DNA from: Sodaliphilus sp. | GTDB taxonomy: Bacteria > Bacteroidota > Bacteroidia > Bacteroidales > Muribaculaceae | DNA length: 64,000 nt | Reading direction: 5' to 3' | NCBI GenBank assembly: GCA_045114065.1 | Contig: JBGUJU010000099.1 | Span: 9,579 to 73,578 of the forward strand | Part shown: positions 33,362 through 63,997 of the stretch, one piece after another | Position numbering within the stretch: the stretch's first letter is position 1 | How the letters are laid out: the number at the start of each line of letters is the position of its first letter | Program-made: the position numbers and the translations under genes | The notes under the pieces: generated by a model | What the model saw: the letters and a program-made list of their open reading frames with translations, nothing else | What the model was told of the DNA's origin: nothing | The model's database searches: none

Positions 33362-35776
33362 TCAGTTGCCTGAGAGCAGAGAATCGATCAACCAGGTCAC
33401 ATCATCGATGGAGATCCTGCCATCGCCATTGACATCTGCAGTCTCGAGATCAAGAGCGGTATCTGACAACATAGCGTTTACCAGATCGGCCACATCCGCA
33501 ATGTCAACTCGACCATCACCATTCACGTCGCCCTTAATACCCTGACCTTCATGGAGAACAACCTCCTTGGTATTACTCCAGAGACTTGAAGTGCCATTGA
33601 CATAATATGCCTTTACGCGATAGAGATAGGGAGCGCCAGGCGTGAGACCAGTAACGGTATAGAACTTGTCGGGAGTGATGCCCTCAATGAGGCTATATTC
33701 AGCATCACCATTCACGATCGGAGCTTTGAGCATGAAGGGATCAGGATCTGTGATCTCACCACCGTAAATCTTGATGCTCTGGATCTCGGGGTAGTAACCT
33801 GCGATAATCTTGACAAATCCCTCGTCACCTACCGAGAGAACTACCAGATAAGTGTTAACTTCCTTGGCCAGCATGAGGGTCCTTGTTTCCTGATCGGTAG
33901 TAATAGTCAGCGTAGTGTTCGTTCCCTTGGAATAGGCCTTGGCCCTGATGATGACACTCACCTTGCTGAAGCCTGTCAGGTCGCAATTGGGAAGGAGTTC
34001 GTCATTGCGGCTGGCCGAGATGAAACCGCCATCAAGATAGAAGCGGGCTCCGTTGAAGCTCCAACCCTCGGGCAGATAGTTGGCAGCATCGGCTGCATGA
34101 TTGGTATCATCCTCGGGAACGTTGCTCCAGTCGGCTTCGGTCAACAATACCACGTCGGGTTTGAGCCTTACCTCAAGGGTGTAACTGCTCACGTTCTCAA
34201 CAGGCGTATCATCGGTCCAGTCGGCACGGAACGAGGTAGCGGTCACCGTCGACTCATCAAGATCCTGCATCACGGGACGATAGAGCTCATACTCTGAAGT
34301 ACCCTCCAGGTCGATAATGACATCCTCGACACCAGCAGCGCTAACGGTGATGGTAGCATGGTAGTTACCTTCGGCCTTAGGTGCATAGGTTACTCTAACG
34401 GGCTCATCAACCTTACCATCCTCGTCGGGGGTAATGGTGGTCTTGTTCAGGACGAACACATCGTTCTCATCGTTGAGCGTCAAGGTTACCTCACCCTCGA
34501 GGTGAGAACCCTTCAACGTGAACGAACCATTCTCGGTATTGTTCTTGAAGCATGACATTGACAAGCTGGTCTTGTCGGCCCTGAGGCGCGGTATTATCAT
34601 CGACGAGGGCTGAATGCCGATAACCATCTGCTGGTACTGGTTGAAGGTCGAACCCTGACCATTGAAAGCGTTGAGAGCATAATAGTTATTGGAAGTGCCA
34701 CTCCAGCCGAAGTTGATGTGATACTTGTTGGAAGAGGCATCATAGCCATCAATATTGAAGGCATGGCCACCGCCAAAGTATCCACCAGCAACTGCACAGA
34801 ACACGATAGGACGGCCCTCAATGAGCTCCTCCTGCATGATAGCAGCCCACTCGGCATCGGTGTAGAGCGTCTGGCCACCACTATATGCACTGGTCTTCTT
34901 CACCACGCGCACTGTCTCTTCGTCATAGCCGAAGAACTTGAAGGCGTCAGCAATCAGAGAGACACTATCAACGCTCACGCCACTACCACCAGCAGCACTG
35001 GTACCGTAGGCCATGTGCTCGGCCTGACCTATATAGCGCATCAGGGTAGCCACGGCGTCGGCCTCGGCAGTTGAATAACCGCTGGTATAGGTGTCACGCA
35101 TATTATCCCAGTCAAAGGTAACGGGAGGCAAGGCAGCCACATTCACCATCGAAGAACCATACCACGACGTGCTCAACTCACAGCGATAGCCAGGCACCTC
35201 GGGAGTTATATAATCAGGGAATTTCCAGTAGTAGAACACCATTGCGGCCGATGTTGCGGGGCAGCCAGTAAGACACTGATTGCCATTGATCTTACACATG
35301 TTCCAATAGGGAGCTTCCTGGTCCCACAAGGCAGTCAACAGGGGAGACACGCTCGGGATGTCGGAAGTTGCCCTCAGGGACGGGGCCTCCACTTGGAGCT
35401 CCTCATGAGCCTGCAAATATTCTATCTGTTCCTGCAGCATGGCGAGCAACGCCTTCATATTGCAGGGGATGTTGTTATAATCCAGCGGACAATCACCATA
35501 ACCCAGGATTCTCTCGCCACGGTCATCACCCGACACAACTACATAACCATTGTTGGTATTGAAGATGTAGTAAGCGGCACGGTCCATCATCTTGGAGTTC
35601 ATCTCCACATGGGCCAGTTTCATATCTCCCACAATAGGAGCATTAAGTTTACCACCATACAATTTCTGCTGAACAAACCTCTGAGCCTCGGCTTGTGCCG
35701 AATTCAAGTCAACAGGTGCAGCAGTGGCCTGCATAGCCGCAAATAAAAGCACTGCAAAGAATAGAATTTTTCTCAT
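33362..35776 (-). CDS. C10-family cysteine peptidase (streptopain-like) with Spi-type propeptide, Ig-like module, split Fn3 and C-terminal double dockerin repeat
   Basis: Signal peptide. Propeptide pattern (AAYYIFNTNNGYVVVSGDDRGERILGYGD). Catalytic Cys context CLTGCPATSAAMVFYYW. His context GGHAFNIDGY. HINFGWSG. C-terminus GDVNGDGRVDIADVADLVNAMLS..DVNGDGRISIDDVTWLIDSLL. Confidence 0.9.
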   Translation of the reverse strand: MRKILFFAVLLFAAMQATAAPVDLNSAQAEAQRFVQQKLYGGKLNAPIVGDMKLAHVEMNSKMMDRAAYYIFNTNNGYVVVSGDDRGERILGYGDCPLDYNNIPCNMKALLAMLQEQIEYLQAHEELQVEAPSLRATSDIPSVSPLLTALWDQEAPYWNMCKINGNQCLTGCPATSAAMVFYYWKFPDYITPEVPGYRCELSTSWYGSSMVNVAALPPVTFDWDNMRDTYTSGYSTAEADAVATLMRYIGQAEHMAYGTSAAGGSGVSVDSVSLIADAFKFFGYDEETVRVVKKTSAYSGGQTLYTDAEWAAIMQEELIEGRPIVFCAVAGGYFGGGHAFNIDGYDASSNKYHINFGWSGTSNNYYALNAFNGQGSTFNQYQQMVIGIQPSSMIIPRLRADKTSLSMSCFKNNTENGSFTLKGSHLEGEVTLTLNDENDVFVLNKTTITPDEDGKVDEPVRVTYAPKAEGNYHATITVSAAGVEDVIIDLEGTSEYELYRPVMQDLDESTVTATSFRADWTDDTPVENVSSYTLEVRLKPDVVLLTEADWSNVPEDDTNHAADAANYLPEGWSFNGARFYLDGGFISASRNDELLPNCDLTGFSKVSVIIRAKAYSKGTNTTLTITTDQETRTLMLAKEVNTYLVVLSVGDEGFVKIIAGYYPEIQSIKIYGGEITDPDPFMLKAPIVNGDAEYSLIEGITPDKFYTVTGLTPGAPYLYRVKAYYVNGTSSLWSNTKEVVLHEGQGIKGDVNGDGRVDIADVADLVNAMLSDTALDLETADVNGDGRISIDDVTWLIDSLLSGN

Positions 35777-35824
35777 AAAACAATCAAAAAATATGTTAAT
35801 AATTTATGTACCAGGTAGTTATGT

Positions 35825-35832
35825 CAAAAATA
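35825..35832 (-). promoter_or_regulatory. -7 box TAnnTTTG (minus strand)
   Basis: Plus-strand caaaaata is tatttttg on the minus strand, ~49 nt upstream of the ATG at 35776. Confidence 0.4.
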
Positions 35833-35993
35833 ACGCCATTGCGGCATGCAATGACGCTTAAAACAATCACAAAAGTACTCCTAAAAAAGCAAATCAGCAA
35901 CAATAATTATATTAAATGTTGTAAAAATAAACCATTTTTATAATCCGTGCCGGTCTCCCAACTTACTGCAATCAATAGTAACTGAATAACATA

Positions 35994-36046
35994 GCAATAG
36001 TGACATCGCTACCTGATAAAGAAGTAACGATGTCACCATTGATTGC
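35994..36046 (-). terminator. Hairpin downstream of the second C10 gene
   Basis: Stems gtgacatcg (36000-36008) and cgatgtcac (36028-36036), with partly paired extensions. Confidence 0.45.
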
Positions 36047-36074
36047 TGCTATCCTGTCCTGTGGTTGATCAATT

Positions 36075-38456
36075 CTAGTTCAACAAGATGCTGATAAGAG
36101 TGGTCACGTCAGTTATGCCGATGATCTCATCGCCATCAACATCTGCACAAGTCTCACAAGCGCCTCCGCCATTCAGCAAGAAGTTAATCAAGGCGGTCAC
36201 GTCCTGAATGTTCAACGCGCCATCGTGGTTCACGTCGCCCGCCTGATAGTCATGGCTGCTACCCGACAGGACCACATAGCTGCTCTTGCTCCACTGGCTC
36301 GAGGTGCCATCTATATAATGTGCCTTGACCCGGTAATAGAAGGAACCCCCAGCCGCCAGGTCACTGACAGTGTAGTTCTTCCCGCAAATACCCGTGATGA
36401 GGCGATAATCAGCGCCACCTTCCTCGGCAACAGCACGCATCTGGATCTGTTCATTCTCTCCGGCATAGACCTGAATGTTCTGGAACACGGGATAGCCGCT
36501 CTTGCCAGCAATAGTCACCTGGTCCACCTCATTGCAGTCTAGCACAGCGATATAGGCAGTGAACGGGGAACCGCCGGGAGCCGAGAACTCCAGCTGGTCG
36601 ACAGCGGTAGAGACAATGAATTTTGAACTACTCTGAGACAGGGAAGACTTAGCCGTCACGACAACGGTCACCTTCTCATAACCTGACAAGTCATAAACTG
36701 GCGATGCCAACGCGCTCTTATTGTTGATGGAAATACCTGACTGCTCACACCACAGACCGTTGCCAGTAAAAGTCCACTCCTCGGGCATCAATTCCTCGGG
36801 GTAGTTGGCATAGTTGCTGGAATTTTCCACGATGTCACTCCAATCGACCTCTCCGATAAGGGTAAAACCTGGCTTGGTATTCACCTCAAGCGTATAGCTC
36901 TCCACATACTTGTCTGCGGTCTCATCGGTCCATTCAGCAAGGAATTGGGTCAATCCGATGTGGGTGCTGTCGGCGGGAAGCATCACAGGCCTATAGACAT
37001 CCAGGACGGCCTCACCGTTCAGGGTGATGGTCACATCCTCGGCATCAGGGCTGCTCAATGTAATCGTTGCGGTGTGATTGCCGCTTGCCAACGGTGCATA
37101 GGTCACATTGACAACCTTGCCCGAATCCACATCACTGAGGGCGACACTTGCTGCGTCCAGCGAGAAGGTACCGTCAGCATCATCGAGTGTCAATGTAACG
37201 TCATCGGTCAGGAACTTGCCCTTGACAATAAAGCTGGCTGTAGAACTCTGGTCAACAAATGCCTCCATATTGATCTGGCGAGGTGTCACATTGATCGTTG
37301 GGGTCGTGATGGGCGGATGGATACCTATGATCATCTGTTGCTCGATATTGAACGTGTAATCCCTGTAGCTGAAGGCATTCAACGCGAAATCGCCATTACC
37401 GATGCCGCTCCAGCCCCAATTCACATGATAGGTGTCGGTGGCGGCAGTATAGCCGTCCACATTGAAGGCATGGCCGCTCCAGCCACGCTGATCATTGTAG
37501 TCAAAGGCACAATACACCACAGGGCGACCCTCGAACATCTCATTCTGGAGCATGGCGGCCCAGTCGGCGTCACTATAGAACTGCTGCATCTCGTTGCCAA
37601 AGCCGTCGGCCATGGATTTCATCACCAGGTCGGCCTCCTCGTCATAGCCGAAAAACTTGACCGCGCGCAGGATATCGCTGCCTTGAGCACCGCTGCCATC
37701 AATCCCATAATCCATGTGCTCCTCCTGGCCGATGTAGCGCATCAGCCAAGCCACGGCATCGGCCTGGACCTCGTTGTAGTTGCCCTCAACATACTCGTCG
37801 AGCATATTGTCCCAATCAAACGTGATGGAAGGCAACGCAGGCAAGTTGAGGCCATAACTATATGCCGGAACCGGGGGCGTCGGTTCAACGGGATATTTCC
37901 AGTAATAGAACACCATCGACAACGACGTGGCGGGACAACCGGTCAAGCAGGGCGTGTCACCGATAACGGGACAGTGGTTCCAGTAAGGCTCCGCCTGGTC
38001 CCACATGGCTGTGAGCATCGGGGGAACGGTGAGCGAAGCCGAGCGCCCGCCGATGAGGGGCACATCAACCTTCAACTCAGGATTGGCCTCCAGAAATACC
38101 ATCTGGCGCTTATAGGTACTGAGCCAGTTTTTCATGTTCTCTGGCATGCGTGCTAAGTCCAGCGGACGGTCTCCCCAAGCCAGAATCTGACGCGCACGGT
38201 CATCGCCAGCAACGATAACAAAGCCGTGGTCGCTATTGAAAATGTAATAAGCCGCCTGGCCAGCGCGTGAGGGGTTCACCTCGGTGTGCAGCAGCCTCAC
38301 GTCGGCAGCTGCAGCGGGAACGCCACGATATCCAGGGGAAGTGTTGTCAAACAGGAAATTCCTTGCAGTGGCACGAGCCTGTACCACATCAACATCGGCG
38401 GCCACAGCCGGCATCATCACCAGCATCAGCATGGCCCATAGCAATAATCTTTTCAT
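36075..38456 (-). CDS. C10-family cysteine peptidase paralog with double dockerin repeat (CxxC class)
   Basis: CLTGCPATSLSMVFYYW, SGHAFNVDGY, HVNWGWSG. C-terminus GDVNHDGALNIQDVTALINFLLNGGGACETCADVDGDEIIGITDVTTLISILLN. Confidence 0.9.
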   Translation of the reverse strand: MKRLLLWAMLMLVMMPAVAADVDVVQARATARNFLFDNTSPGYRGVPAAAADVRLLHTEVNPSRAGQAAYYIFNSDHGFVIVAGDDRARQILAWGDRPLDLARMPENMKNWLSTYKRQMVFLEANPELKVDVPLIGGRSASLTVPPMLTAMWDQAEPYWNHCPVIGDTPCLTGCPATSLSMVFYYWKYPVEPTPPVPAYSYGLNLPALPSITFDWDNMLDEYVEGNYNEVQADAVAWLMRYIGQEEHMDYGIDGSGAQGSDILRAVKFFGYDEEADLVMKSMADGFGNEMQQFYSDADWAAMLQNEMFEGRPVVYCAFDYNDQRGWSGHAFNVDGYTAATDTYHVNWGWSGIGNGDFALNAFSYRDYTFNIEQQMIIGIHPPITTPTINVTPRQINMEAFVDQSSTASFIVKGKFLTDDVTLTLDDADGTFSLDAASVALSDVDSGKVVNVTYAPLASGNHTATITLSSPDAEDVTITLNGEAVLDVYRPVMLPADSTHIGLTQFLAEWTDETADKYVESYTLEVNTKPGFTLIGEVDWSDIVENSSNYANYPEELMPEEWTFTGNGLWCEQSGISINNKSALASPVYDLSGYEKVTVVVTAKSSLSQSSSKFIVSTAVDQLEFSAPGGSPFTAYIAVLDCNEVDQVTIAGKSGYPVFQNIQVYAGENEQIQMRAVAEEGGADYRLITGICGKNYTVSDLAAGGSFYYRVKAHYIDGTSSQWSKSSYVVLSGSSHDYQAGDVNHDGALNIQDVTALINFLLNGGGACETCADVDGDEIIGITDVTTLISILLN

Positions 38457-38528
38457 ATCGATAACAGATTGATTAGTAGTCTCGGTTGATTGTCACGATG
38501 CCAGCTATATAGGCTGACCCACGGTTTG

Positions 38529-38536
38529 CAAAATTA
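38529..38536 (-). promoter_or_regulatory. -7 box TAnnTTTG (minus strand)
   Basis: Plus-strand caaaatta is taattttg on the minus strand, ~73 nt upstream of the ATG at 38456. Confidence 0.4.
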
Positions 38537-38608
38537 CAAAAAAAAGTGCATTCTATTTGTCTTTCCCGCAGTAATTATGCTGGAAGCAGGCAGAATAGCC
38601 ATAGTAAC

Positions 38609-38650
38609 AAAAAAATTGGGACTCAAATGCCCAAAACACTTGAGTCCCAA
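38609..38650 (-). terminator. Intrinsic terminator of the third C10 gene
   Basis: 11-bp stems ttgggactcaa and ttgagtcccaa, followed on the minus strand by a 7-nt T-run. Confidence 0.8.
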
Positions 38651-38674
38651 TAGAGGTATCCATTATTCAGCACA

Positions 38675-41047
38675 TCAATTCCCGCCAAGCAGGAGATTGA
38701 TGAGTACTGTCACATCGTCAATGCCGATCTTGCCATCGGCATCGACGTCGGCACAGATGGGACATGCATCCTTCTCGTCACCGGACAGCAGGTAGCTGAT
38801 GAGGCTGGTCACATCATCAATACTCAATTTCTCGTCATGGTTGACGTCACCCAGGTCATAACCATGGCCGCCCAGGGTCACCTTCTGGCTATTGCTCCAG
38901 CGGCTCTCGGTGCCGTCGGTATAGAGCGCCTTCACTTTGTAGTAGAACGAGCCAAGTGCGGTCAGGTCTTTTACCGTGTAGGACTTGTCGGTGATACCCG
39001 TGACAAGACGATAGTTGGCATCGCCCTGCTCAACGGCCATGAGCGTATTCAGCTCGTTCACGTCGCCGGCATAGACTTTGATCATCGCCATGTCGGGCGA
39101 GAAATAACTATCGGTCGAGGTGATGGTAATTTTCTCTCCCTCGCTAGCCGTCACATACCAGGTATAGGTTGAACCTGAAGTGAATTGGTGGCCGACAGCC
39201 GGGGTCTGATTGGAACCGACAGTGATATTGCCGCTACCATAGGTGCCGCCGACGGTCGTGATCTGCATCGTGAAGATATCATCAGAGTAGCCCTCGGGCA
39301 CGGTGAAGGCAATATAGCCATCATTGCTGTAGTTGCTGAAGTAGTAGGCACCATTACCCACCTTGACTCCATTGCCGCTCCAGGGCTCGGTGAGCGTTAT
39401 GCTCTCGTAGCTGTCAGGATATTGGCTGCCGTCCAGCGTAGCGAGCAGTTCGACAGCAGGACGCGTCGATACCTCCAGCGTGTAGCTCTCAACGTACTCG
39501 GCAGATGTCGCATCGGTCCAGTCAGCACGGAATTTCGTCATGCCGATGGTGGATTCATCGACAGGCAGCATCTGGGGAACATAGGTCTCCAGCGAAGCAT
39601 TACCATTGATCGCCACCATCTTGTCCTCCACACCGGGGCTGCTCAGGGTGACTGTTGCAGTGTGGTTGCCGCTGGCAGTGGGCGCATAGGTCAGGGTGAT
39701 GACCTTACCATCCTGCTGCTCGTCAAGGCTTACGCTGTTCGCATCGAGCGAGAACATGCCGCTTGCATCATTGAGCGTCAGCGTTATTGGGCCGGTAAGT
39801 TCATTTCCCCTGACGGTAAAGGTCGCTGTCGCAGTCTGTTCTACATAGGCCTCGATGTCCAATTTGGACTTGTTCACTTTGATGGCAGGACCCAGGACAG
39901 GAGGCTGGATACCCATAATCATCTGTTGCTCGATATTGAACGTATAACCGCTCTCGGAGAAGGCATTGAGAACAAAGTCGCCATTGCCGTCGCCACTCCA
40001 GCCCCAGTTCACGTGATAGGTGTCGTCGCTGGCAGTATAGCCATCGACGTTAAAGGCGTGGCCGCTCCAGCCCCAGTAGGAATAATCATAACCACAATAG
40101 ACCACGGGACGGCCCTCGGCAAGCTCATTCTGCAGCAAGGCTGCCCACTCATCGTCATTGTAATAAACCGCCGTATCGGTGCCGTAGTCATCGGTGCGCG
40201 TCTTGAACTCGAGTCGCGCCATATCCTCGTCATAACCGAAGAACTTCACGGCACGCAGGATGTCATCTCCCATGGCTCCACTGCCGCTGGGCGTGTAGTC
40301 CATGTGTTCCTCCTGACCCACGTAACGCATCAGCCAAGCCACAGCATCGGCCTGAGCCGTGTTATAGTTACCCGCAACATACTTGTCCAGCATATTGTCC
40401 CAGTCAAAGGTGATGGACGGCAGCGCAGGTACCTGGAAGCCGTAACTCTCATTGGTATAGCCCTCGACCTCAGGCGTGGGGTCGGTAGGATATTTCCAAT
40501 AGTAGAACACCATTGACAACGAGGTAGCAGGGCAGCCCGTCAAGCAATACGAGCCGTTGTACATGGGACAATGGTTATAGTAGGGGGCATCCTGATCCCA
40601 CTCGGCTGTCAGCAGCGGAGCGACATCGCCTATCCTCTGGCTTCTCTTGGGGGTTGGCTTATCGACAACCAGGCCAGGATGAGCCTGCAGGTATTCAATC
40701 TGCTTCTTGTAAGTGCCGAGCCAGAACTTCATGTTGTCTGGCATGCGTTTCATGTCCAGAGGACGGTCTCCATGGGCAAGAACCAAGTGGGCGCGGTCAT
40801 CACCCGAGACGATCACAAACCCCTTGTCGTAGTTAAAGATGTAATAGGCAGCCTGAGCGACATTAGCCGAATTTAACTCGGTGTGAATCAGCTTGAGGCT
40901 ACTTGCCGAAGCTCCTTGTAAACGCTTAGCTTTATTCGTGTTGACGTAACGTTTGGCTGTCGATGTCGCCTCAGCCAAGTCAACATTGGCCGCCGAAATC
41001 TGCATCACGGCCAACAACAAAGTGACGAGCAATAATAATTTCTTCAT
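38675..41047 (-). CDS. C10-family cysteine peptidase paralog with double dockerin repeat (CxxC class)
   Basis: Same catalytic contexts as 36075-38456. The Fn3 insert is of the type found in ORF 2-2359. C-terminus GDVNHDEKLSIDDVTSLISYLLSGDEKDACPICADVDADGKIGIDDVTVLINLLL. Confidence 0.9.
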   Translation of the reverse strand: MKKLLLLVTLLLAVMQISAANVDLAEATSTAKRYVNTNKAKRLQGASASSLKLIHTELNSANVAQAAYYIFNYDKGFVIVSGDDRAHLVLAHGDRPLDMKRMPDNMKFWLGTYKKQIEYLQAHPGLVVDKPTPKRSQRIGDVAPLLTAEWDQDAPYYNHCPMYNGSYCLTGCPATSLSMVFYYWKYPTDPTPEVEGYTNESYGFQVPALPSITFDWDNMLDKYVAGNYNTAQADAVAWLMRYVGQEEHMDYTPSGSGAMGDDILRAVKFFGYDEDMARLEFKTRTDDYGTDTAVYYNDDEWAALLQNELAEGRPVVYCGYDYSYWGWSGHAFNVDGYTASDDTYHVNWGWSGDGNGDFVLNAFSESGYTFNIEQQMIMGIQPPVLGPAIKVNKSKLDIEAYVEQTATATFTVRGNELTGPITLTLNDASGMFSLDANSVSLDEQQDGKVITLTYAPTASGNHTATVTLSSPGVEDKMVAINGNASLETYVPQMLPVDESTIGMTKFRADWTDATSAEYVESYTLEVSTRPAVELLATLDGSQYPDSYESITLTEPWSGNGVKVGNGAYYFSNYSNDGYIAFTVPEGYSDDIFTMQITTVGGTYGSGNITVGSNQTPAVGHQFTSGSTYTWYVTASEGEKITITSTDSYFSPDMAMIKVYAGDVNELNTLMAVEQGDANYRLVTGITDKSYTVKDLTALGSFYYKVKALYTDGTESRWSNSQKVTLGGHGYDLGDVNHDEKLSIDDVTSLISYLLSGDEKDACPICADVDADGKIGIDDVTVLINLLLGGN

Positions 41048-51602: not shown

Positions 51603-51619
51603 ATAGATGACTACTGGCA

Positions 51620-55099: not shown

Positions 55100-57469
55100 C
55101 TAATGGCTAAAACCTAAAATAATATCAATGACAGCATTGATATCGGCGACGTTAATCTCGCCGTCGCCGTTCACGTCACCCAACAAGCTCACATTACCTG
55201 ACAGAATCATGTCGATAATGGTGTTGATATCGGCAATGTTCACCTCGCCGTCGTCATTCACATCACCCTGGATGGCAACGTCTTGAGGCATGCTGGCATA
55301 GACCAGCTCCATCCCCGGAATCTTGAGGGAGTAGGGTTCGCCGTTAGTCACGGGGCTATAGGTGATGTAGTAATAGATCAAGTGCAGCGGGAAGTTGCCC
55401 AGGTCGGCAACCTCACAGATATCGCTCACGGGAGCATCTACGGTCACCATGTCGCCCGTGCCCTCGATGGGATAATCCACAGTGATGCGCTCGCCATAGG
55501 CATTCTCGACCACCATTTTCACCGACTTGAGCTGAATCTCGCCAGGCACCATGCGCAGGCGCAGGGTGTCGGGCAGGCCCCACATCTGTACCGACTTGGA
55601 AATCTTGATGTATGGGTTGCGGGACGAAGAGCCCGTGAAGTCAATTTGCAGGCCATTGTCCAGTGCTGTAACGACCCGATCCTTGCCGCCGCTCTGAGCC
55701 ACCTGCCACGTATCGGGGTCAATGGGCGCATTCTCGATAGTTGTTACACGGCGCTTGGGATTCTCGACACGCACCAGCAATGAGTCGGCAAGCAGGGGGT
55801 GGCTTGAGCCCACAAAGGTCTGTCCGTCGGCGACAGCAGTGATGACTCCCCTGTCGTCAACCGTACAGACATCCTCATTGGCCGAGGCCCAAGCCACAAC
55901 CGAAGGGTCCACCTTGTCCATCCCATAGCCGCTGATGCCGTTGATATTGATGGCATAAGGGTGAAACCGGTCCAGCACCACGCTGTCACTCACCAGTTGC
56001 CACTGGGCCTCCATGATGGTGACTGGTTGTGTGGCTGTAATTCCGTTGTAGGTCGCATAGAGATTGCCCGAGGCTGGCGTGGAGACAGCATGGAAATTAC
56101 CGTCCTCATCAAAACTTCCCACCTGGGGGTCACAGGAGAAGGTACAACCCTGCAACTGGCGCGTCTTCAACACGCCATACTGGTTGTAGCCCCACACATC
56201 AAACGATGTGGTAGCCGATATTGACAAGTTGTAGCAGCGGGGCTCAAAACTGATGATGCCGATGTTGTCATCCTCGGGAGCTATCGAGACAAACAGGCAG
56301 CCGTTGCCCACGGCTCGCACGGGTCCGTCGCTGGGATGGTTCAGCACCTCGTCATTGACAAGGATGCACGACGAGCCGCCACCATCCAGGTTCACGGCAT
56401 TGACGGCTCCCAGGGCGTCAAAGATGCCCTTCATCTCCCGGAGTGTCACACCTACCGATGTGAGATGCCGTCCGTCAACAACGACAAAGTAGAGACGCGT
56501 GCTATCGGCATTGAAGCCGATGGCGGTGCGGGGATGACGCTCGGCCCAGTCCTCCATGAACTGCCCGTTCTGCATGATGATGTGGTTGCTGCCACCAATC
56601 AACTGGTGGATATTCACATCCTGGGGACCATTGTTGAGCGTGAGGCTGAAACTGATGTCCAGCACGTCGCCCACATTCATCCATTCAGTCTGGTTGGCAT
56701 AGGTGCCCTTGAGCCACAAGATACCCTTGCCGTCAGGAATGGTTCTTGAACCCTGGGCGTCAAAGATATCCTCAATGACGCAATGTTCCGTGCCATTGGC
56801 ATTCCATCGGAATTCGCCCTCGGCGGGACGCAACAGCACCATCTTGCCCGTGCTGGAGCCGTCATAGGTCACCGGACCGTAGCTGCGGGTAAACAGGAAC
56901 GACTGGTTGGCAGCGATGTTCTCATAGGCATAACGCATGCGGTTCACCAGATTGAGCGAGAACGAGTGGTCACCGCCGGTCACCTTGCCGACGAATGTCA
57001 GGCGATCGATAAAGGGCTTGTTGTCAGTATCCAGCACCAGGCAGGCACGATTGTGGCTGCTGAGCACCAATTCATCGTTGCGCACTTGGCCGCTCAACGG
57101 CAGGCCCACCTCGTTGGTGGGCGATGTCATGAAGAAGTCGCCATTGACCGCTCCCACCACCTCATGACCAGGCCTGGTGTTGCGGATCGCCATATTGACG
57201 GGCGTCTCGCACGCCACCGACTTCTCGCCACCCAGGCAGGTCTCCATCACGACATAGGGATTGGTCAAGTCCATCTCGACGACACTCACCTTGAGGGGCA
57301 AGGCAGGGATGTCAAACTTGGCAGCCGTCATGCCCGGTCCCACCAGATGCGGGAAAATGAGCGTGTCCACCTCATAGGCCTTGTCGCCAATCATCCACTG
57401 GTCACGCGCTTGTCCTGCCACCGATGACAGCAGCAGGACAAGTAGCGTTAAGACGATATTTCGTTTCAT
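55100..57469 (-). CDS. Phosphodiester glycosidase family protein (NAGPA/DUF2233-like) with Big_2-like module and double dockerin repeat
   Basis: AVNGDFF and NAVNLDGGGSSCILVND motifs. Ig-like segment (VVAWASANEDVCTVDDRGVITAVADG). C-terminus GDVNDDGEVNIADINTIIDMILSGNVSLLGDVNGDGEINVADINAVIDIIL. Confidence 0.8.
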   Translation of the reverse strand: MKRNIVLTLLVLLLSSVAGQARDQWMIGDKAYEVDTLIFPHLVGPGMTAAKFDIPALPLKVSVVEMDLTNPYVVMETCLGGEKSVACETPVNMAIRNTRPGHEVVGAVNGDFFMTSPTNEVGLPLSGQVRNDELVLSSHNRACLVLDTDNKPFIDRLTFVGKVTGGDHSFSLNLVNRMRYAYENIAANQSFLFTRSYGPVTYDGSSTGKMVLLRPAEGEFRWNANGTEHCVIEDIFDAQGSRTIPDGKGILWLKGTYANQTEWMNVGDVLDISFSLTLNNGPQDVNIHQLIGGSNHIIMQNGQFMEDWAERHPRTAIGFNADSTRLYFVVVDGRHLTSVGVTLREMKGIFDALGAVNAVNLDGGGSSCILVNDEVLNHPSDGPVRAVGNGCLFVSIAPEDDNIGIISFEPRCYNLSISATTSFDVWGYNQYGVLKTRQLQGCTFSCDPQVGSFDEDGNFHAVSTPASGNLYATYNGITATQPVTIMEAQWQLVSDSVVLDRFHPYAININGISGYGMDKVDPSVVAWASANEDVCTVDDRGVITAVADGQTFVGSSHPLLADSLLVRVENPKRRVTTIENAPIDPDTWQVAQSGGKDRVVTALDNGLQIDFTGSSSRNPYIKISKSVQMWGLPDTLRLRMVPGEIQLKSVKMVVENAYGERITVDYPIEGTGDMVTVDAPVSDICEVADLGNFPLHLIYYYITYSPVTNGEPYSLKIPGMELVYASMPQDVAIQGDVNDDGEVNIADINTIIDMILSGNVSLLGDVNGDGEINVADINAVIDIILGFSH

Positions 57470-58854
57470 GACTTCAATATCAAGTCAATGACAGCATTGA
57501 CGTCAGCAATGTTCACCTCGTTATCTCCGTTCACATCGCCTGGCTTAAAGTATTTACCCGACAGAATCAAGTCAATGACGACATTGACGTCGGCAATGTT
57601 CACCTCATTGTCACCATTCACGTCACCGGGTATGCCGGGCTGCGGCTGGGGACCCTCCACGTTGCGACCGATCTTATAGACCGCCATGCCGTTAAACGCC
57701 TTGAACGTGAAGAGCGTCACCTCCTCGTTGCCCTCGGCATCGGTGCCATATTCAACAGCGAAGCAATGCACGCGCAAGCCGCTGTCGTTGAACTTACCCA
57801 GACTGTCGGCAGGAATCTTCCAATACTTGGTCATTCCAGCCAGCGACTGGCCTTCGCCCAGCTCACAGATGTTCGCCTGGCAGCCGTGTCCGTTGCCGTT
57901 CATGTCGGCGTTAACATACACAAAGAAGTCGCGGTCCTCCAGCTTGAACTCGATACAACCGTTGGGTGCAGACTGGGGCCAGAGTGCAGGGTCAGTGTCC
58001 TCAAACGAATCGATGACCGAGCCCGAGAAGTCATAAATCACAGGAGCAGTATCAAAGCAGTCGATATAGAACATCTCGCCGCTGTAGCGCGATTCCTCAT
58101 CAGGACCCTCAATCATCTTGATGACGGGAGCCAACGAGAAACCCGTCTTGGTCTCGGGATAGAAATAGATGACATCGATATAAGGGTCGCCCTCAAAGCC
58201 ACCTTCCCACTCTCCGCCCTGGTCGGCATGCATGCGATAGAGCGTGGGGAAACCTGGATCGGCTGTCGAGCCCGACACCGTCATGATGTTACACTCGGCC
58301 TGCTCAAGGGTAATGTCACCGATCACGTCAAGGTAGTCGGTGCGCTGCGGGGCGTCGCCCTTGTCCATTTCAACGACGAGGGTGAGTTCGCCGGTCTCGG
58401 TATCCACCAGATAAACTGGCACATACTGCTGCAGATTGCTCGTCATGGGAGCCACCCAGATGTGGTGGAAACTGTCCTTGCCGATGCTTGCCACGCCCAG
58501 GAAACGGCTATAGGGAGCCCCGTCAAGGTACAGGGGCAGGTCCTCGAGCTGGCTACCGTCGGCTGCCGAGAAACGATGGATAACCGACTGTGCCACAGTA
58601 TCGGTGCCGATAATCACTGCACGCTCCTCGCTGCGTGCCACATAGATGATGCCCTGGTCCATTGTCGCCGTTCGGGCGCGCTGGTTACAGATGGCATTGG
58701 AGGTATAGTCATTGCCACTGTGGACACGGTCAAAGATCCACTGGTTCACAATCTTGATGCCATTCACCTCGGGATAGGTCTGGCCATCGGTTACTGCCCA
58801 TGCACTGAGTGCAGCGGCAAGCAGGGTAACAAATAGAAGTAAAGACTTTTTCAT
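57466..58854 (-). CDS. Secreted protein of unknown function (~390-aa beta-rich domain) with double dockerin repeat
   Basis: Signal peptide (..LSAWA/VTDG). Paralog of 58965-60356. C-terminus GDVNGDNEVNIADVNVVIDLILSGKYFKPGDVNGDNEVNIADVNAVIDLIL. ATGA overlap with the downstream gene. Confidence 0.8.
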   Translation of the reverse strand: MKKSLLLFVTLLAAALSAWAVTDGQTYPEVNGIKIVNQWIFDRVHSGNDYTSNAICNQRARTATMDQGIIYVARSEERAVIIGTDTVAQSVIHRFSAADGSQLEDLPLYLDGAPYSRFLGVASIGKDSFHHIWVAPMTSNLQQYVPVYLVDTETGELTLVVEMDKGDAPQRTDYLDVIGDITLEQAECNIMTVSGSTADPGFPTLYRMHADQGGEWEGGFEGDPYIDVIYFYPETKTGFSLAPVIKMIEGPDEESRYSGEMFYIDCFDTAPVIYDFSGSVIDSFEDTDPALWPQSAPNGCIEFKLEDRDFFVYVNADMNGNGHGCQANICELGEGQSLAGMTKYWKIPADSLGKFNDSGLRVHCFAVEYGTDAEGNEEVTLFTFKAFNGMAVYKIGRNVEGPQPQPGIPGDVNGDNEVNIADVNVVIDLILSGKYFKPGDVNGDNEVNIADVNAVIDLILKS

Positions 58855-58887
58855 TTTATTTGGTTTTTTAGTGATGATACATTTTCA

Positions 58888-58941
58888 CGCTAAGGCGCCA
58901 AGACGATGAAACCATTTTCAATACATCTTAGCGCCTTAGCG
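58888..58941. other. 11-bp inverted repeat with 32-nt loop between the two paralogs
   Basis: cgctaaggcgc (58888-58898) and gcgccttagcg (58931-58941). Possibly a terminator for the upstream paralog. Confidence 0.5.
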
Positions 58942-58964
58942 GCTTATCGTGAGAAAGCTAATGA

Positions 58965-60356
58965 TTAGCTCAGGATGATGTCAATGATGGCATTGACATC
59001 GGCGATATTGACCTCCTTGTCGCCATTCACGTCACCGACGGTGTCCTGGCTGCCGTTCAAGATCATGTCGATAACGACATTGACATCGGCAATATTCACC
59101 TCCTTGTCACCGTTCACGTCACCGATGATACCAGGCTGGGGATCATCACCCATCACGTTGGTACCAATCTTGTAGACTGCCATACCATTGTAGCACTTGA
59201 AGATGAACAGCGTCACCTCCTCGTTGCCCTCGGCATCGGTACCATATTCCACGTTCATGCTCTCGACACGTGTGCCGCCGTCACTCATCATACCCAGTGC
59301 GTCGGGCACCATCCAGTAGCGCTGCATGCCGGTCAATGACATACCCTCGCCAAGCTCACAGATGTTGACCTGGCAAGCGCGGTCGATGCCGGTAGCCTCG
59401 TTGGGACCTGAATACTGGGCGGTCACATAGACGATGAAGTTGCGGCCCTCGAGTGTGAACTCGCACACGCCGTTGGCACCGACCTCCATGGGCCAGATCT
59501 CGGGATCAACATACTCAAAGTTGTCCACCATCGAACCCGTCTCGTCATAGAGGATAGGTGACGAGTGGAAACCGTCAATATAGAACAGATTGCCGCTATA
59601 GCGGGTCTCCTCATCTTCGCCGAGTACCATCTTCACTACGGGAGCATAGCCCCAGTTGGTCACCGTCTCGGGATAGAAGTCATAGATAGCGATGTAGCAA
59701 TCGCCTTCAAAACCGCCTTCCCAGTCGCCGCCCTGGTCGGCATGCCAGCGGTAAACATACTCTGAGCTGGCACCCACCGTCATGATGTTGCACTCGGCCT
59801 CCTCGAGCGTGATGTCACCCATCACGTCGATGTAGTCACAGCGCTGCAGCACATCACCCTTGTCGAGGTTGGCGACTAACGTGAGCTCACCGGTCTCCTT
59901 GTCAACCATATAGACGGGCTGAACGGCTGCCAACTCACTGGAGTAGGGAGCCACATAGAGGTGACCGAAGTTGTCCATGCCCACGGTGTTGGCACTCAAC
60001 ACGGCACCGCCATAAATCGCGCCGTCGAGCGTCAAGGGCAATTCCTTCACAAATTCACCATTGGTTGCATCCACCTTGTAAATCACGCTTTGGGTCAGCG
60101 TGTCAGTGCCCAGGATGACCGTGTTGGCATTGGAACGGGTGATATACACATAGCCGTCGGCCATCACCGCAGTGCGGGCATAGGTGTTGTTGTAGGGCTT
60201 GCTGTTCCACACGCTCTCGGTGTGCACGCGGTCCTGAATCCACATGTTCTTGATGCCGATACCGTTAACGGCTTCATACTTCACACCATCGGTCACAGCC
60301 CATACATTGGCTATGCACGATGCCACCAATAGAGAAAAAAGTAATAGCTTCTTCAT
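58965..60356 (-). CDS. Secreted (possibly lipidated) protein of unknown function, paralog of 57466-58854, with double dockerin repeat
   Basis: MKKLLLFSLLVASC.. is a lipobox-like signal. Conserved blocks are shared with its neighbour (ITLE(Q/E)AECNIMTV, HADQGG(E/D)WEGGFEGD, YGTDAEGNEEVTLF). C-terminus GDVNGDKEVNIADVNVVIDMIL..GDVNGDKEVNIADVNAIIDIIL. Confidence 0.8.
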   Translation of the reverse strand: MKKLLLFSLLVASCIANVWAVTDGVKYEAVNGIGIKNMWIQDRVHTESVWNSKPYNNTYARTAVMADGYVYITRSNANTVILGTDTLTQSVIYKVDATNGEFVKELPLTLDGAIYGGAVLSANTVGMDNFGHLYVAPYSSELAAVQPVYMVDKETGELTLVANLDKGDVLQRCDYIDVMGDITLEEAECNIMTVGASSEYVYRWHADQGGDWEGGFEGDCYIAIYDFYPETVTNWGYAPVVKMVLGEDEETRYSGNLFYIDGFHSSPILYDETGSMVDNFEYVDPEIWPMEVGANGVCEFTLEGRNFIVYVTAQYSGPNEATGIDRACQVNICELGEGMSLTGMQRYWMVPDALGMMSDGGTRVESMNVEYGTDAEGNEEVTLFIFKCYNGMAVYKIGTNVMGDDPQPGIIGDVNGDKEVNIADVNVVIDMILNGSQDTVGDVNGDKEVNIADVNAIIDIILS

Positions 60357-60521
60357 AATTGCTTTGGTTTTTAGTTTTTATAATTTGTTAGTATTCTTAT
60401 CTATTCCATTAAGTTAGCAAAGTAACACAAAATATTTCTATCCTCAAAATCCAAGAGGACAATATTTCAAAAAACGCTGCTAAGAGGCCTCAAAAACGGC
60501 TAATCACAGTAATCGCCCGAA

Positions 60522-62117
60522 CTACGAGAGGATGAAATCAATGAGAAAATTCACGTCATTGACATTGATCTCTTGATCACCGTTGACATCGGCTCGCTTG
60601 ATGGCGTTATCATCGACCTGTTTGCCCAATATGATGTCTATCAGCGCATTGATGTCACTCACGTTGACCTCGCCGTCACCATTTACATCGCCAAATATGG
60701 GTTCGGGAACGAAGTCCAATTGCTGGTCCATCCACTGAACGCGCTTGACGAGCCACTGCTTGATGTAGGAGATCTCCTCGGCAAAGTTCTGGGAGATGTA
60801 GTAATTGGGCCACACATAGATGCCCCAGACGGGATAAGCCTTGCTGTTGCGCTGCTCGGCACCGCCCACGGTGAGTACATGTGCCAGCGAGTCGACGGTA
60901 GCCATCAGGCGGTCCATGCGCAGGTTGCCCTGGCGGTATTGTGACCACCGCTCTTTCAAGTGCTGGACATAGCGGCGATCAATGTTGAGTTTATACCACC
61001 AGAAGGGGACCATATCGGTCGAGGCTTTCTTGGGCAGGATGTCATTGACATTATACATCCAGGTGTCGGTGCGCCATCCCTCAAAGTAGTTGGAGTTGCC
61101 ATAAGCCAAGTTCATGTCCCAGATGACCATTTTGAAACGCGGGTCTTCACTGTCGCGACGCTTGAAGAACTTGCCGCTCAAGCGGTAGGCATCGACATTG
61201 TGACCGATCTCCATCGCCAACTGATAGTCGATGAACGACATCTCATCGATATACTGGTACTCGCCCGTCTCTGGGTCACGGAACCCCGACGCCATGGCAG
61301 CCTCCATCTTGTCAATCTCGCTTTGCATGTAAGCCAGTTGCGCTTCGGTCCAGTCTTCATAATCGGGCCACTTGTACTGGTAATACACGAGGGTCGTCCA
61401 GATGATACTGCCGTCGCTGCACAAGGGCCTGTACTTTGACACATAGTGGGGCTCGTCGTTACGGTCCACCTCCATCAGGTAGCCGCCAGTGAGGGCGTCA
61501 CCATCCTCGCCCGGATCGTCAAGGTTCAGGCGGTTCTTGCCTGCCGAGACCACCTCCGACAAGAGAAAGACACCATAATAGATATCGTTGCAGATGACTT
61601 CACAGAAACGACCCTTAGGAGTAAACTCCATCCAGGGTCTGGAAATCTCAAAGGCAAGCATGTCGCGCAGCAGGCTCTTGTCGTTATAGGGAGCCAGCAA
61701 CGCCCAGTTGTTGTCCTTGGGCATCCCCAGGATGGACACTCGCCGCGACGAGCCGCCCTCTTCCAGCGGCCGATTCAACGGCTTGAAGGAATAGGGCTTC
61801 TTGGCACTGTAGGTATAGGAGGAGTTGCCACGGTAGCGCAGGGCGATATATCCGTCATAATCAACGTGTTGCCCTGGGTGCTTGAGCGTATCGGAATAGT
61901 TGGTCCTGCCCTCGCCGTTGTCGATGATTTTCATGCGTGCAGTGACGCGCTCATAGCGTTCCACGTCATCCTCCACCGTCAGCCAGACAATGGGAAGGTT
62001 GGTCGATGTGAGCTTGACCCGCTTGTTCATGGGTGCAGTCCATGGCCCATCACTGGCGACGGCTTTGACGAGTCCCGCCAGCAAGAGCATTACGGTCAAG
62101 AGCACCAACTTTCTCAT
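60522..62117 (-). CDS. CotH kinase-family protein with double dockerin repeat
   Basis: Signal peptide. CotH-like blocks (IALRYRGNSSYTYSAKKPYSFK, YYGVFLLSEVV.., TGGYLMEVD). C-terminus GDVNGDGEVNVSDINALIDIIL..ADVNGDQEINVNDVNFLIDFIL. Confidence 0.75.
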   Translation of the reverse strand: MRKLVLLTVMLLLAGLVKAVASDGPWTAPMNKRVKLTSTNLPIVWLTVEDDVERYERVTARMKIIDNGEGRTNYSDTLKHPGQHVDYDGYIALRYRGNSSYTYSAKKPYSFKPLNRPLEEGGSSRRVSILGMPKDNNWALLAPYNDKSLLRDMLAFEISRPWMEFTPKGRFCEVICNDIYYGVFLLSEVVSAGKNRLNLDDPGEDGDALTGGYLMEVDRNDEPHYVSKYRPLCSDGSIIWTTLVYYQYKWPDYEDWTEAQLAYMQSEIDKMEAAMASGFRDPETGEYQYIDEMSFIDYQLAMEIGHNVDAYRLSGKFFKRRDSEDPRFKMVIWDMNLAYGNSNYFEGWRTDTWMYNVNDILPKKASTDMVPFWWYKLNIDRRYVQHLKERWSQYRQGNLRMDRLMATVDSLAHVLTVGGAEQRNSKAYPVWGIYVWPNYYISQNFAEEISYIKQWLVKRVQWMDQQLDFVPEPIFGDVNGDGEVNVSDINALIDIILGKQVDDNAIKRADVNGDQEINVNDVNFLIDFILS

Positions 62118-62140
62118 TGCACTACTTATTCTGCATTGAC

Positions 62141-63997
62141 TTATTTACTGAGTATCAGGTCTATCACGGCGTTGACGTCGGCGATATTGACTTCGCCGTC
62201 ACCGTTCACATCGCCTAGCGAATAGGTATCTCCTGAATCACCCAGAATCATATCGATGACCGTATTCACGTCGGCAATGTTCATCTCGCCGTCGGCATTC
62301 ACATCACCGCGCATCAGGGCACGATAGACAAACGTGCGGATGTTGCAATAGTCGGTATATTGGGCTGTGGTGCCTGTGGCGAGTGTACGATAGGCATAGC
62401 GGGCACGGACGTAGTAGGTGTTGCCGTCAACCAACTTGCCGGCACCCCTGATGTCCCCAAGAGGTATGGTCTCAAAACCGTCATCGATGGTACCGTTGTA
62501 GGAGGTGCGCGACGGGAATGACTCCGAGGTACTGATCTGCACCCTCAACGAGTTGATGCCCTCGACAGGCTCACAGCTCACCACATCGTTGGCATAGAGC
62601 ACCGTCTGTCCGTTGGCGGGACAGAGCAGTGTGGGAAATGGCGGAATCACCTCTACTGTAGTGAACGACGAGACGGGAGTCACTACTGTGAAATCGCCCT
62701 GTATGGCGGTCACTCGAGCGTAGTAGGTTGTCGCTCCCGCCAGCCGGTACTTCGGCACCTGCCACTGTGGCTCGCTCAAGCACACGGTATCGGGATTGTT
62801 CATGGTCGATGACGTGGACAGTTCCAGCAGGTAGGATGAGCCCTGGCCTCCTGCCGTCCACGTGATGCAAGGCATCAGGGGAACATCATTCTCTCCGATG
62901 CTCGGCGTGATGATGCGCATCTGGCCCAGCGAGAAACGGCTCAGTTCGCTCACGTTGTCCCACTGGTTAAGTCCTCGAGCCACCACACGCCACCAGTAAT
63001 CCTGCTCAACGAGATGCGGTATCCTGGTCAAGGGGAGGCAGGTCGTGTCGGTCTCCACTCGTGCCACGAGCGTGTTCATCTCGGCATCAGCATAGACCTC
63101 AACGACATAATTGGACGCGTCACACTGCCACTGCAGCGACGAGAGTTCTGTCACAGGACCTCCGTCTTCGGGATACAACAGGACTGGCTTGGGAGCCTGG
63201 GTGGGTACCATGCCAGGCATCACCGGCGCATACTCGTTCTCCCAGCGGTCAAGGATAGTCACCGCATAGCGGTAACCCTCGCGCTTGGCGGCTGGCATCG
63301 TATAGGATGCCCAATAGGTCACGCCCTCGATATAGCGGGCCTGGCAACGGAACTCCTTGTCCTCCACCCCATCAGGAATGGCATACACCACATAGCGCAC
63401 ATTGGGGATGCTGTCCCATGAGAGCCTGCCGTCGCCATAGGATAGGTTGTTGACGGTGGTATAGGTCTGGTCGGGCTTGAGCCACGCGGGGACGGGATTC
63501 AGCGCCAACGTCGAGTAGAGGCTATCTTTTAACCACGTGCGCAACTGGCGCACCTTGCCGTCGATGACCTCCTTCTTGTTGCGCCATGTGCCGTAACGGA
63601 AATAGACCATGCCAGGATTGCCGCCGGCAGCCATCGCAGCGCGCATGACACGTCCCTGCTTGACAAACTCGGCGAGCGTCCAGCCTTCCTCATCGGGAAT
63701 CCACTGGCTGATATAGACGTGGCGGTTGAACCTGGCAGCCATCTTGCCCCACCAGGTGGTGACACCGGTAAAGGTGCCCGTCGTCTTCCAATAGACCTGG
63801 GGCGCCATGAAATCGATAGTGCCACGCGTGAGCCAAGCCATCGGGTCACTATAGATCTGGTTATACTGCCAGTCGCTGCCCACGGGACAGGGCTCCACGC
63901 CATACTTGTCGGCAACAGACTGGGCGGTGCAAGCCACACCGGCAGGGCCGATACCGAAGCGCACCCACGGCTTGGTCTCCTTGACCATGTCGTTCAC
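62141..63997 (-). CDS. GHL10-like (DUF187 / 'family 10 glycosylhydrolase'-like) protein, 5' end outside window, with three Ig/Fn3-like modules and double dockerin repeat
   Basis: The ORF is open at the window edge. The catalytic-domain remnant (..IDFMAPQVYW..) is recalled from the GHL10 family, with moderate certainty only. Three ~90-aa repeats end ..YYARVTA / ..YYVRARYAY. C-terminus GDVNADGEMNIADVNTVIDMIL..GDVNGDGEVNIADVNAVIDLIL. Confidence 0.6.
   Translation of the reverse strand: MNDMVKETKPWVRFGIGPAGVACTAQSVADKYGVEPCPVGSDWQYNQIYSDPMAWLTRGTIDFMAPQVYWKTTGTFTGVTTWWGKMAARFNRHVYISQWIPDEEGWTLAEFVKQGRVMRAAMAAGGNPGMVYFRYGTWRNKKEVIDGKVRQLRTWLKDSLYSTLALNPVPAWLKPDQTYTTVNNLSYGDGRLSWDSIPNVRYVVYAIPDGVEDKEFRCQARYIEGVTYWASYTMPAAKREGYRYAVTILDRWENEYAPVMPGMVPTQAPKPVLLYPEDGGPVTELSSLQWQCDASNYVVEVYADAEMNTLVARVETDTTCLPLTRIPHLVEQDYWWRVVARGLNQWDNVSELSRFSLGQMRIITPSIGENDVPLMPCITWTAGGQGSSYLLELSTSSTMNNPDTVCLSEPQWQVPKYRLAGATTYYARVTAIQGDFTVVTPVSSFTTVEVIPPFPTLLCPANGQTVLYANDVVSCEPVEGINSLRVQISTSESFPSRTSYNGTIDDGFETIPLGDIRGAGKLVDGNTYYVRARYAYRTLATGTTAQYTDYCNIRTFVYRALMRGDVNADGEMNIADVNTVIDMILGDSGDTYSLGDVNGDGEVNIADVNAVIDLILSK

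Follow-up and report, generated by a model that had tools for sequence, protein, structure and literature searches.

The locus described here raises the question why a diderm bacterium of the Bacteroidales should end a whole series of exported enzymes with dockerins, when no cohesin that could receive them is in sight. It lies in a stretch of 64,000 nucleotides from Sodaliphilus sp. (assembly GCA_045114065.1, contig JBGUJU010000099.1, positions 9,579 to 73,578 of the forward strand), which is referred to as the window. Eleven open reading frames (ORFs) on the minus strand of the window share a duplicated C-terminal segment. The tails formed by these segments are genuine type I dockerin modules, and not signals of the type IX secretion system (T9SS). 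The main new point is that dockerin and T9SS-like tails are interchangeable at one and the same junction in C10 peptidases. As to the role of the tails, we lean towards the view that they are working docking modules, which would hold unrelated Sec-exported enzymes on a common partner, and which would be fixed and vertically inherited in a Muribaculaceae-like lineage of rumen Bacteroidales.

A first-pass annotation of the window had singled out eleven ORFs with paired C-terminal segments. All eleven are found where it placed them (Table 1), and the layout of the tail is the same in each, with two segments of ~21 amino acids (aa) that end 1-4 residues upstream of the stop codon. The segments are near-identical copies with the consensus D-V-N-x-D-x-x-(V/I)-x-(I/V)-x-D-(V/I)-x-x-(L/I/V)-I-x-x-(I/L)-L, typically in the form DVNxDGxVNIxDVxxLIxxLL. 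When six frames of the whole window were searched with a regular expression for a single segment, 20 matches were obtained, all of them within these tails; the rest of the 64 kb gave none.

The same annotation had named the segments type I dockerins, and the name is borne out by curated models. All eleven tails exceed the gathering cutoff of the Pfam Dockerin_1 model (PF00404, 22.9 bits), with E-values from 6e-5 to 3.5e-10, and the seven dockerin proteins that were scanned against NCBIfam gave no match to T9SS models. The closest solved structures to the tail of the CotH kinase-like protein (ORF 60522; ORFs are named by their lower coordinate) are clostridial type I dockerins, namely 2CCL_B (C. 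thermocellum Xyn10B, E 4.3e-6), 5NRM_B and 1OHZ_B. In the AlphaFold2 (AF2) model of ORF 57466, the tail contains helices at residues 420-432 and 449-461, with block-mean pLDDT values of ~68-86. It could be argued that the tails are chance or generic EF-hand-like repeats mis-scored as dockerins, in view of several scores close to the Pfam cutoff, of weak EF-hand matches beside the strongest tail, and of calmodulin-type proteins low in the list of PDB matches. This explanation is hardly credible. It is effectively refuted by the curated cutoff, which all eleven tails pass, by the paired arrangement of the segments at the extreme C-terminus, by the confinement of the motif to the tails, by the top PDB matches, which are all dockerins, and by the conservation of the tails in hundreds of orthologues.

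Signal peptides had been predicted wherever the N-terminus lies within the window, and all ten such N-termini indeed look like signals of the signal peptidase I (SPI) type. The eleventh ORF (62141-end) is cut by the end of the window. Its full-length form of 857-858 aa, found in the related loci L001-L005, has a signal peptide as well.

The tails fall into classes. In five tandemly arranged C10 peptidases, the first Asp residues of the two segments are 31-33 residues apart, and four of the five tails have a CxxC motif just before the second loop. The stretches that contain it (36143-36242, 38749-38854, 41410-41509 and 43402-43504) read, for example, 'ACETCADVDGD' or 'LCLTCADVNGD'. To our knowledge, such a linker CxxC is not a feature of clostridial type I dockerins; it could represent a disulfide or a metal site. 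Among the other six tails, five are compact, with a spacing of 29 residues (group II), and the tail of the CotH kinase-like protein has a spacing of 33 residues and no CxxC. A spacing of 29 is found in 28, and a CxxC linker in 29, of 89 two-segment dockerins collected from the window and related loci. In the first and second segments of this set, the Ca2+ ligand positions are occupied in 89 and 84 cases (D1), 89 and 86 cases (N/D3), 87 and 83 cases (D5), and 89 and 89 cases (D12), respectively. The tails would be expected to bind Ca2+.

Group II segments on unrelated cargos share 71-95% aa identity in the closest pairs, yet the same codon is used at only 48% of the identical residues. The low codon sharing indicates that the similarity of the tails has been kept by selection and was not made by recent gene conversion, so that the tail residues are under purifying selection. 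The presence of two tail classes in one window suggests two specificities. Taken together with the conservation of the same residues on different cargos, it argues for a specific interaction. The docking reading gives the tails the role that dockerins usually have: two Ca2+-loaded loop-helix segments would form a small module that binds a protein partner. One common receptor would hold the C10 peptidases as well as the GHL10, CotH, NAGPA and beta-propeller proteins of a neighbouring polysaccharide utilization locus (PUL), and the two tail classes would correspond to two docking specificities.

Pfam domain scans return the cargo that the first-pass annotation had listed: six proteins with an I69 propeptide and a C10 peptidase domain, a CotH kinase-like protein, a phosphodiester glycosidase (NAGPA), a GHL10 protein, and two proteins that remain unassigned. 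The six peptidase ORFs score 150-231 bits on C10 (PF01640) and 62-84 bits on I69 (PF13734), and the C169 and H327 columns of the C10 alignment are invariant. A seventh C10 paralogue, ORF 2-2359, ends differently. It is part of a 1515-aa I69 + C10 gene, which is present at full length in L084 (4543-9090), and it contains at least two copies of a ~350-aa stalk module, which match the stalk of ORF 43325 with 41% and 32% identity. The 1515-aa protein terminates in '...VTYVNLNGVQSKEPFDGVNIVVTRYRSGAVKSSKVLY', and the pattern 'Y(V/Y)N..G......P..G(V/I)NI.V..Y.DG.....K' also ends seven ORFs of related loci. In scans of the window and of the related loci, this tail type matched neither TIGR04183 nor PF18962. 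In a profile-profile comparison (hhalign), the first half of the tail aligns with T9SS C-terminal domain (CTD) tails, with 82.7% probability and an E-value of 9.5e-6.

Two T9SS tails had been claimed for the window. The one in ORF 2-2359 is thus a matter of resemblance to T9SS tails and not of a model match. The other, in ORF 24809-25117, stands. It exceeds the TIGR04183 cutoff of 23 bits and is the only HMM-verified (hidden Markov model) T9SS tail of the window, which makes it very probable that the T9SS route exists in the organism. The 102-aa mini-protein that carries this tail is nearly devoid of a passenger domain, and in L011 and L022 it is found beside a PLD gene and arrays of C10-dockerin genes.

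In the window, six of the seven C10 paralogues end in a dockerin and one in a T9SS-like tail, and the same alternation is seen among relatives. A dockerin forms the end of 101 of the 131 3'-complete C10 homologues in L006-L081, usually 0-6 residues from the stop codon. Most of the remaining 30 have a Prevotella-type tail, '...YDLQGRRV..P.KGIYI.NGKKV.IK', and five are confirmed by T9SS HMMs. TIGR04183 is reached by 5/29 and PF18962 by 4/29 non-dockerin tails; the others were called T9SS-like from the motif and hhalign. The junction can be followed in the C10 orthologue of L024, which shares the fn3 domain found ahead of the dockerin in the window but continues from it into a T9SS-like tail. Both tail kinds occur together in eleven sequences (ten fetched loci and the window), so that the co-occurrence first noticed in the window extends to single contigs of related genomes. 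Counted by sampled genome, C10 tails are of the dockerin kind only in 34, of the T9SS-like kind only in 20, and of both kinds in 1, in addition to the genome of the window itself. A crude heuristic assigns SPI-like, non-lipoprotein signals to 146 of 161 dockerin ORFs, which resemble T9SS cargo in this respect. The dockerins sit at the extreme C-terminus of Sec-exported, non-lipoprotein enzymes of the SPI type, at the place where paralogues and orthologues bear a T9SS-type CTD, and in our interpretation the dockerin would have replaced such a tail in most C10 paralogues.

The exchange of tails may also suggest that the dockerin stands in functionally for the T9SS CTD, either as a new signal for outer-membrane export or attachment, or by hitch-hiking on T9SS cargo that bears a receptor. 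The dockerin does hold the position of the CTD at the same junction in orthologues, the cargo family and the signal type are those of T9SS substrates, and both tail types are encoded on the same contigs, with the T9SS route probably present. The T9SS exports folded proteins. However, the small helical dockerin is structurally unlike the beta-sandwich CTDs and does not match T9SS tail models, and no precedent was found in the literature searched. Moreover, no receptor-bearing T9SS cargo was found, and the stalk of the T9SS-tailed C10 peptidase is not cohesin-like. We regard this explanation as improbable. It is doubtful, too, that in this lineage the dockerin now fills the role of the T9SS CTD as a second tail-encoded system, which would deliver folded enzymes to the surface of a diderm or hold them there by way of a non-cohesin receptor or T9SS hitch-hiking, and which would amount to a hybrid of PUL and cellulosome. 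The receptor could, for instance, be part of the SusCD complex or a protein anchored by the T9SS.

For the docking reading, docking itself, the identity of the partner and the docking site in the envelope are what we infer, and the partner is not a recognizable cohesin in the DNA examined. Several observations weigh against this reading. In agreement with the first-pass annotation, Pfam scans of essentially all real ORFs of the window detected no cohesin. An HMM of three PDB-verified CipA cohesins, run with filters off against 3584 ORFs in 1.49 Mb, gave a best E-value of 0.79, although so narrow an HMM is a weak test. The 462/463-aa unassigned proteins were considered as hidden cohesins and rejected, because they are all-beta and propeller-like in the AF2 model (pLDDT 64). 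The ~350-aa stalk was likewise considered as a new scaffold module, but in its AF2 model (pLDDT 87) it is a string of Ig-like, beta-sandwich and fn3 beads. Published Bacteroidetes bins contain 11 dockerins and 0 cohesins (Gharechahi 2018, PMC6071333); one of these bins has 53% G+C, like the window. Several of the tails are barely above the Pfam cutoff (23.6-24.5 bits). Finally, we know of no route that would take an SPI protein without a T9SS CTD across the outer membrane in Bacteroidales, so that an extracellular docking site remains a proposal.

Other candidates were examined as well. The best Foldseek match of the ~400-aa domain of ORF 57466 is 4FTD (DUF4623, Bacteroides eggerthii), with a TM score of ~0.45. 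There is no cohesin among the top 50 PDB matches of the stalk model, for which the multi-domain query lowers the sensitivity to single domains. A conserved neighbour without a dockerin was sought by clustering 1034 ORFs from 82 sequences, which returned only housekeeping synteny (TonB_C, pseudouridine synthase, MiaA, AI-2E). TonB_C has its own terminator-like hairpin. The 585-aa ORF 17720-19477 lacks a signal peptide and looks cytoplasmic, and was rejected as a candidate partner. With no partner found, the dedicated addressing or assembly system that had been proposed for the window is not established.

These negative results can also be read in another way, namely that there is no docking partner, that the proteins remain periplasmic or enclosed in outer-membrane vesicles, and that the dockerin acts only as a Ca2+-binding stabilizer or solubilizer, or binds a non-protein ligand. 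In Bacteroidales, SPI proteins that lack a T9SS tail end up there by default. The signals are of the SPI and not of the lipoprotein type, and no cohesin was found in the window, by the narrow HMM in the related loci, or in the published bins. In the PUL, the presumed surface proteins (the 349-aa and the 576-aa PKD protein) are lipoproteins and the dockerin enzymes are not, which fits the usual split between surface and periplasm. Still, identical surface residues that are under purifying selection across unrelated cargos exceed the needs of a stabilizer, and a single genome with two separate classes of tail points to specificity. The C10 peptidases with their propeptides and long Ig/fn3 stalks also have T9SS-tailed, and presumably surface-displayed, counterparts. 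We consider a periplasmic or vesicular role without a partner unlikely, and continue to favour docking.

The first-pass annotation had treated the eleven genes as one island. They form three separate units instead, namely an array of five tandem C10 genes (33362-45721), a lone C10 gene (51620-54184) that is parted from the array by a housekeeping block, and five genes from 55100 to the end of the window. Strong terminator-like hairpins on the minus strand, with stems of 11-20 bp, are located 3' of three tandem C10 genes and of the TonB_C gene just upstream of the array (35995-36041, 38615-38651, 41244-41274 and 45907-45932), and they indicate separate transcription units rather than a single operon. 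In L008, L016, L017, L022 and L025 the genes are again ordered MiaA, AI-2E, Exo_endo_phos, pseudouridine synthase and TonB_C, with 4-6 C10-dockerin genes after TonB_C. At the opposite end of the array, L011 and L022 have the mini T9SS-CTD protein and the PLD gene placed as in the window, and in L017 CutC and a lone C10-dockerin gene are found ahead of MiaA. The position of the array is thus conserved in at least six related species. The recurrent synteny shows that the layout is ancestral and that the copy number varies in place. In this respect the earlier preference for expansion in situ over a single recent mobile insertion is supported.

The third unit is, by its gene content, best described as the enzyme half of a SusD-containing PUL, with SusC presumably beyond the DNA examined. 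Past the end of the window come genes for two lipoproteins, one of 576 aa with PKD and one of 349 aa, and then a SusD-like gene (PF12741/PF12771); in L001, L002 and L004 these three genes are immediately upstream of GHL10. The PUL as a whole spans 55100-64000 of the window and 1-6714 of L001. Its association with a PUL makes the second cluster glycan-related, and the earlier statement that the cargo is not carbohydrate-active in the cellulosome sense goes too far here. Of the eleven dockerin proteins in 64 kb, some are peptidases and the others belong to the PUL, so that there are two groups of cargo. The enzymes of the PUL (GHL10, the CotH kinase-like protein, the pair of propeller proteins and NAGPA) are an unusual set, which hints at a phosphodiester-linked glycan as the substrate. 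The PUL proteins downstream of SusD are lipoproteins, and the enzymes are SPI proteins, all with dockerins. ORF 57466 shares 4 bases with the start of the NAGPA gene, an overlap suggestive of translational coupling.

The remainder of the window is summarized briefly. A capsule or glycan-synthesis block (25335-33067, minus strand) with an UpxY-like antiterminator, a MatE-like flippase, a 407-aa membrane protein, an SDR, an acyltransferase and a thiamine pyrophosphate enzyme sits between the C10 array and the mini-CTD and PLD genes. The block is variable, since in L011 the array directly abuts the latter genes. A Porin_10 protein is also encoded in the window; together with the UpxY-like antiterminator, the SusD-like neighbour and the T9SS tails, it assigns the window to the Bacteroidales. 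Rfam gave no match in the window.

Table 1. Dockerin ORFs and other features of the window, with coordinates of the dockerins in parentheses and model scores in bits.
Feature	Coordinates	Strand	Scores and remarks
I69 propeptide + C10 + Ig/fn3 stalk + dockerin (33374-33535)	33362..35776	-	Peptidase_C10 150.5, Inhibitor_I69 62.4, Dockerin_1 40.4 (residues 748-801); first gene of tandem array; SPI-like N-terminus; linker without CxxC
I69 + C10 + stalk + dockerin (36081-36242)	36075..38456	-	Dockerin_1 30.0 (residues 739-792); 31-residue spacing; CxxC linker NGGGACETCA
I69 + C10 + stalk + dockerin (38687-38854)	38675..41047	-	Dockerin_1 30.3 (residues 732-787); CxxC linker
Shorter I69 + C10 + fn3 + dockerin (41348-41509)	41333..43291	-	fn3 38.7, Dockerin_1 24.5 (residues 595-648); CxxC linker; actual start probably the ATG two codons downstream
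I69 + C10 + stalk + dockerin (43340-43504)	43325..45721	-	Dockerin_1 32.9 (residues 740-794); CxxC linker; final gene of tandem array, adjoins TonB_C
Lone I69 + C10 + group II dockerin (51632-51787)	51620..54184	-	Peptidase_C10 231.1, Dockerin_1 26.2; 29-residue spacing; same gene in L001-L005, syntenic in L017
NAGPA (phosphodiester glycosidase) + Big_2-like + group II dockerin (55118-55267)	55100..57469	-	NAGPA 102.6, Dockerin_1 24.1; last gene of PUL enzyme set
Unassigned beta-propeller-like domain + group II dockerin (57478-57630)	57466..58854	-	Dockerin_1 24.2; no other Pfam family
Paralogue of 57466 (58% identity) + group II dockerin (58974-59123)	58965..60356	-	Dockerin_1 23.6; no other Pfam family
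CotH kinase-like + dockerin (60528-60692)	60522..62117	-	CotH 126.4, Dockerin_1 38.5
GHL10, C-terminal ~620 aa (of 857-858), + group II dockerin (62153-62308)	62141..64000	-	GHL10 41.1, Dockerin_1 24.1; N-terminus beyond window
Seventh C10 paralogue, C-terminal half of 1515 aa	2..2359	+	At least 2 stalk modules; short T9SS-like tail, no dockerin
Mini-protein, 102 aa: signal peptide + ~35 aa + T9SS type A CTD	24809..25117	-	TIGR04183 25.8
Housekeeping block: TonB_C, RluA-type pseudouridine synthase, Exo_endo_phos, AI-2E transporter, MiaA	45958..51509		Syntenic in related species

The tagged proteins are widespread among relatives. A scan with one genome per species yielded 556 relatives of the C10 proteins, of which the best 80 stretches (76 loci) were kept. 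All 76 loci are from Bacteroidales, nearly all of them from rumen or foregut metagenome-assembled genomes (MAGs) labelled Prevotellaceae RUG, Muribaculaceae, Sodaliphilus, Porphyromonadaceae UBA or Prevotella, and the closest kept relative is RUG362, with 79% identity. Proteins identical to those of the window are found in NCBI MAG, ENA rumen and JGI contigs, and the organism, an uncultured member of the rumen Bacteroidales, is labelled Muribaculaceae or Prevotellaceae by NCBI. With ORF 43325 as the query, the I69-C10-stalk-dockerin architecture has 2527 homologues at E <= 1e-5, and PF00404 is present in 114 of the top 120. With an HMM derived from the tails of the window, 167 dockerin ORFs are identified in the 1.49 Mb of window and fetched loci. 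For ORF 57466 there are 682 homologues, of which the 120 listed share 82-100% identity with it; nearly all of these have the tail, and they bear the NCBI name 'MAG: dockerin type I repeat-containing protein [Muribaculaceae bacterium]'. In L025 (18920-19846), L042 (5277-6350) and L067 (1-291), a dockerin directly follows the signal peptide and precedes a domain similar to formylglycine-generating or sulfatase-modifying enzymes, so that in this lineage the tag is not confined to C-termini.

The phenomenon as such is not new, and the novelty of the window is lower than the first-pass annotation implied. Dockerins of rumen Bacteroidetes were reported in 2016-2018, without explanation (PMC6487960, PMC7480376, PMC5742341 and PMC6071333). 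According to Bensoussan 2017 (PMC6487960), Bacteroidetes contribute 8.8% of rumen dockerins; a 'peptidase C10 family protein-DOC' was attributed to Prevotella. Svartstrom 2017, cited in PMC5742341 and PMC7480376, found carbohydrate-active enzymes with appended dockerins within PULs of the moose rumen. Another study of rumen Bacteroidetes (PMC5831590) found no dockerins and called this typical of the phylum, which indicates that the trait is lineage-specific. A literature search for dockerins of Muribaculaceae found no paper.

Bensoussan et al. (PMC6487960) have proposed that dockerins were transferred from Firmicutes into Bacteroidetes, and that peptidases and lysozymes with dockerins play a competitive role. 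Together with the shared habitat, these proposals raise the possibility that the tags aim at cohesins of other rumen organisms, such as Ruminococcus scaffoldins, and that the enzymes load onto foreign cellulosomes or attack them. This is very improbable. Cohesin-dockerin pairs are generally species-specific (PMC6487960), the 29-residue and CxxC forms differ from the best-matching clostridial dockerins, and the proteins would first have to exit a diderm cell. The binding assays of PMC6487960 included no Bacteroidetes dockerin: they were limited to pairs from contigs with both modules, and all 18 such contigs were from Firmicutes.

Rumen Bacteroidales are among the most abundant degraders of fibre and protein in livestock, and surveys repeatedly find a dozen or more of the tags in some of them without a scaffold. 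The window offers a good experimental handle on this problem, with seven C10 paralogues, two tail kinds, and a PUL next to them in which all enzymes are tagged. A receptor, should there be one, would reveal how surface enzymes are arranged in a diderm without lipid anchors or a T9SS tail, and it would provide new orthogonal docking pairs for designer enzyme complexes. If there is none, dockerin counts in Bacteroidetes could no longer be taken as evidence for cellulosomes.

PrtT and periodontain of P. gingivalis and interpain A of P. intermedia are C10 peptidases of Bacteroidales that are secreted by the T9SS. The peptidases of the window share the I69 + C10 core and the SPI signal with them, but six of the seven paralogues have a dockerin in place of the sorting domain. 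The C10 homologues from Prevotella-labelled MAGs in the related loci end in T9SS-type tails. With the type I dockerins of Clostridia and Ruminococcus, such as that of C. thermocellum Xyn10B (2CCL/1OHZ), the tails share the duplicated Ca2+ loop and helix and the location at the C-terminus of secreted enzymes. In contrast to these systems, the host is a diderm of the Bacteroidales, no cohesin or scaffoldin is visible, and the cargo consists mostly of peptidases and PUL enzymes. The D1-D1' distance is 29 in the compact class of the window, compared to ~34, and another class of the window has a CxxC linker. Dockerins on cargo other than cellulases are also known from the amylosome of R. bromii (PMC4611034) and the mucinolysome of Limousia (PMC12997984), which are both Firmicutes systems with identified cohesin scaffoldins. 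The window also resembles the orphan dockerins of rumen Bacteroidetes (PMC6487960, PMC7480376, PMC5742341 and PMC6071333), with which it has in common the habitat, the phylum, the lack of cohesins, the C10-dockerin fusion and the dockerins in PULs. To these surveys, which give counts and single examples, it adds a tandem C10 array with its synteny, two tail classes, the swap with T9SS-like tails, and selection on the tail.

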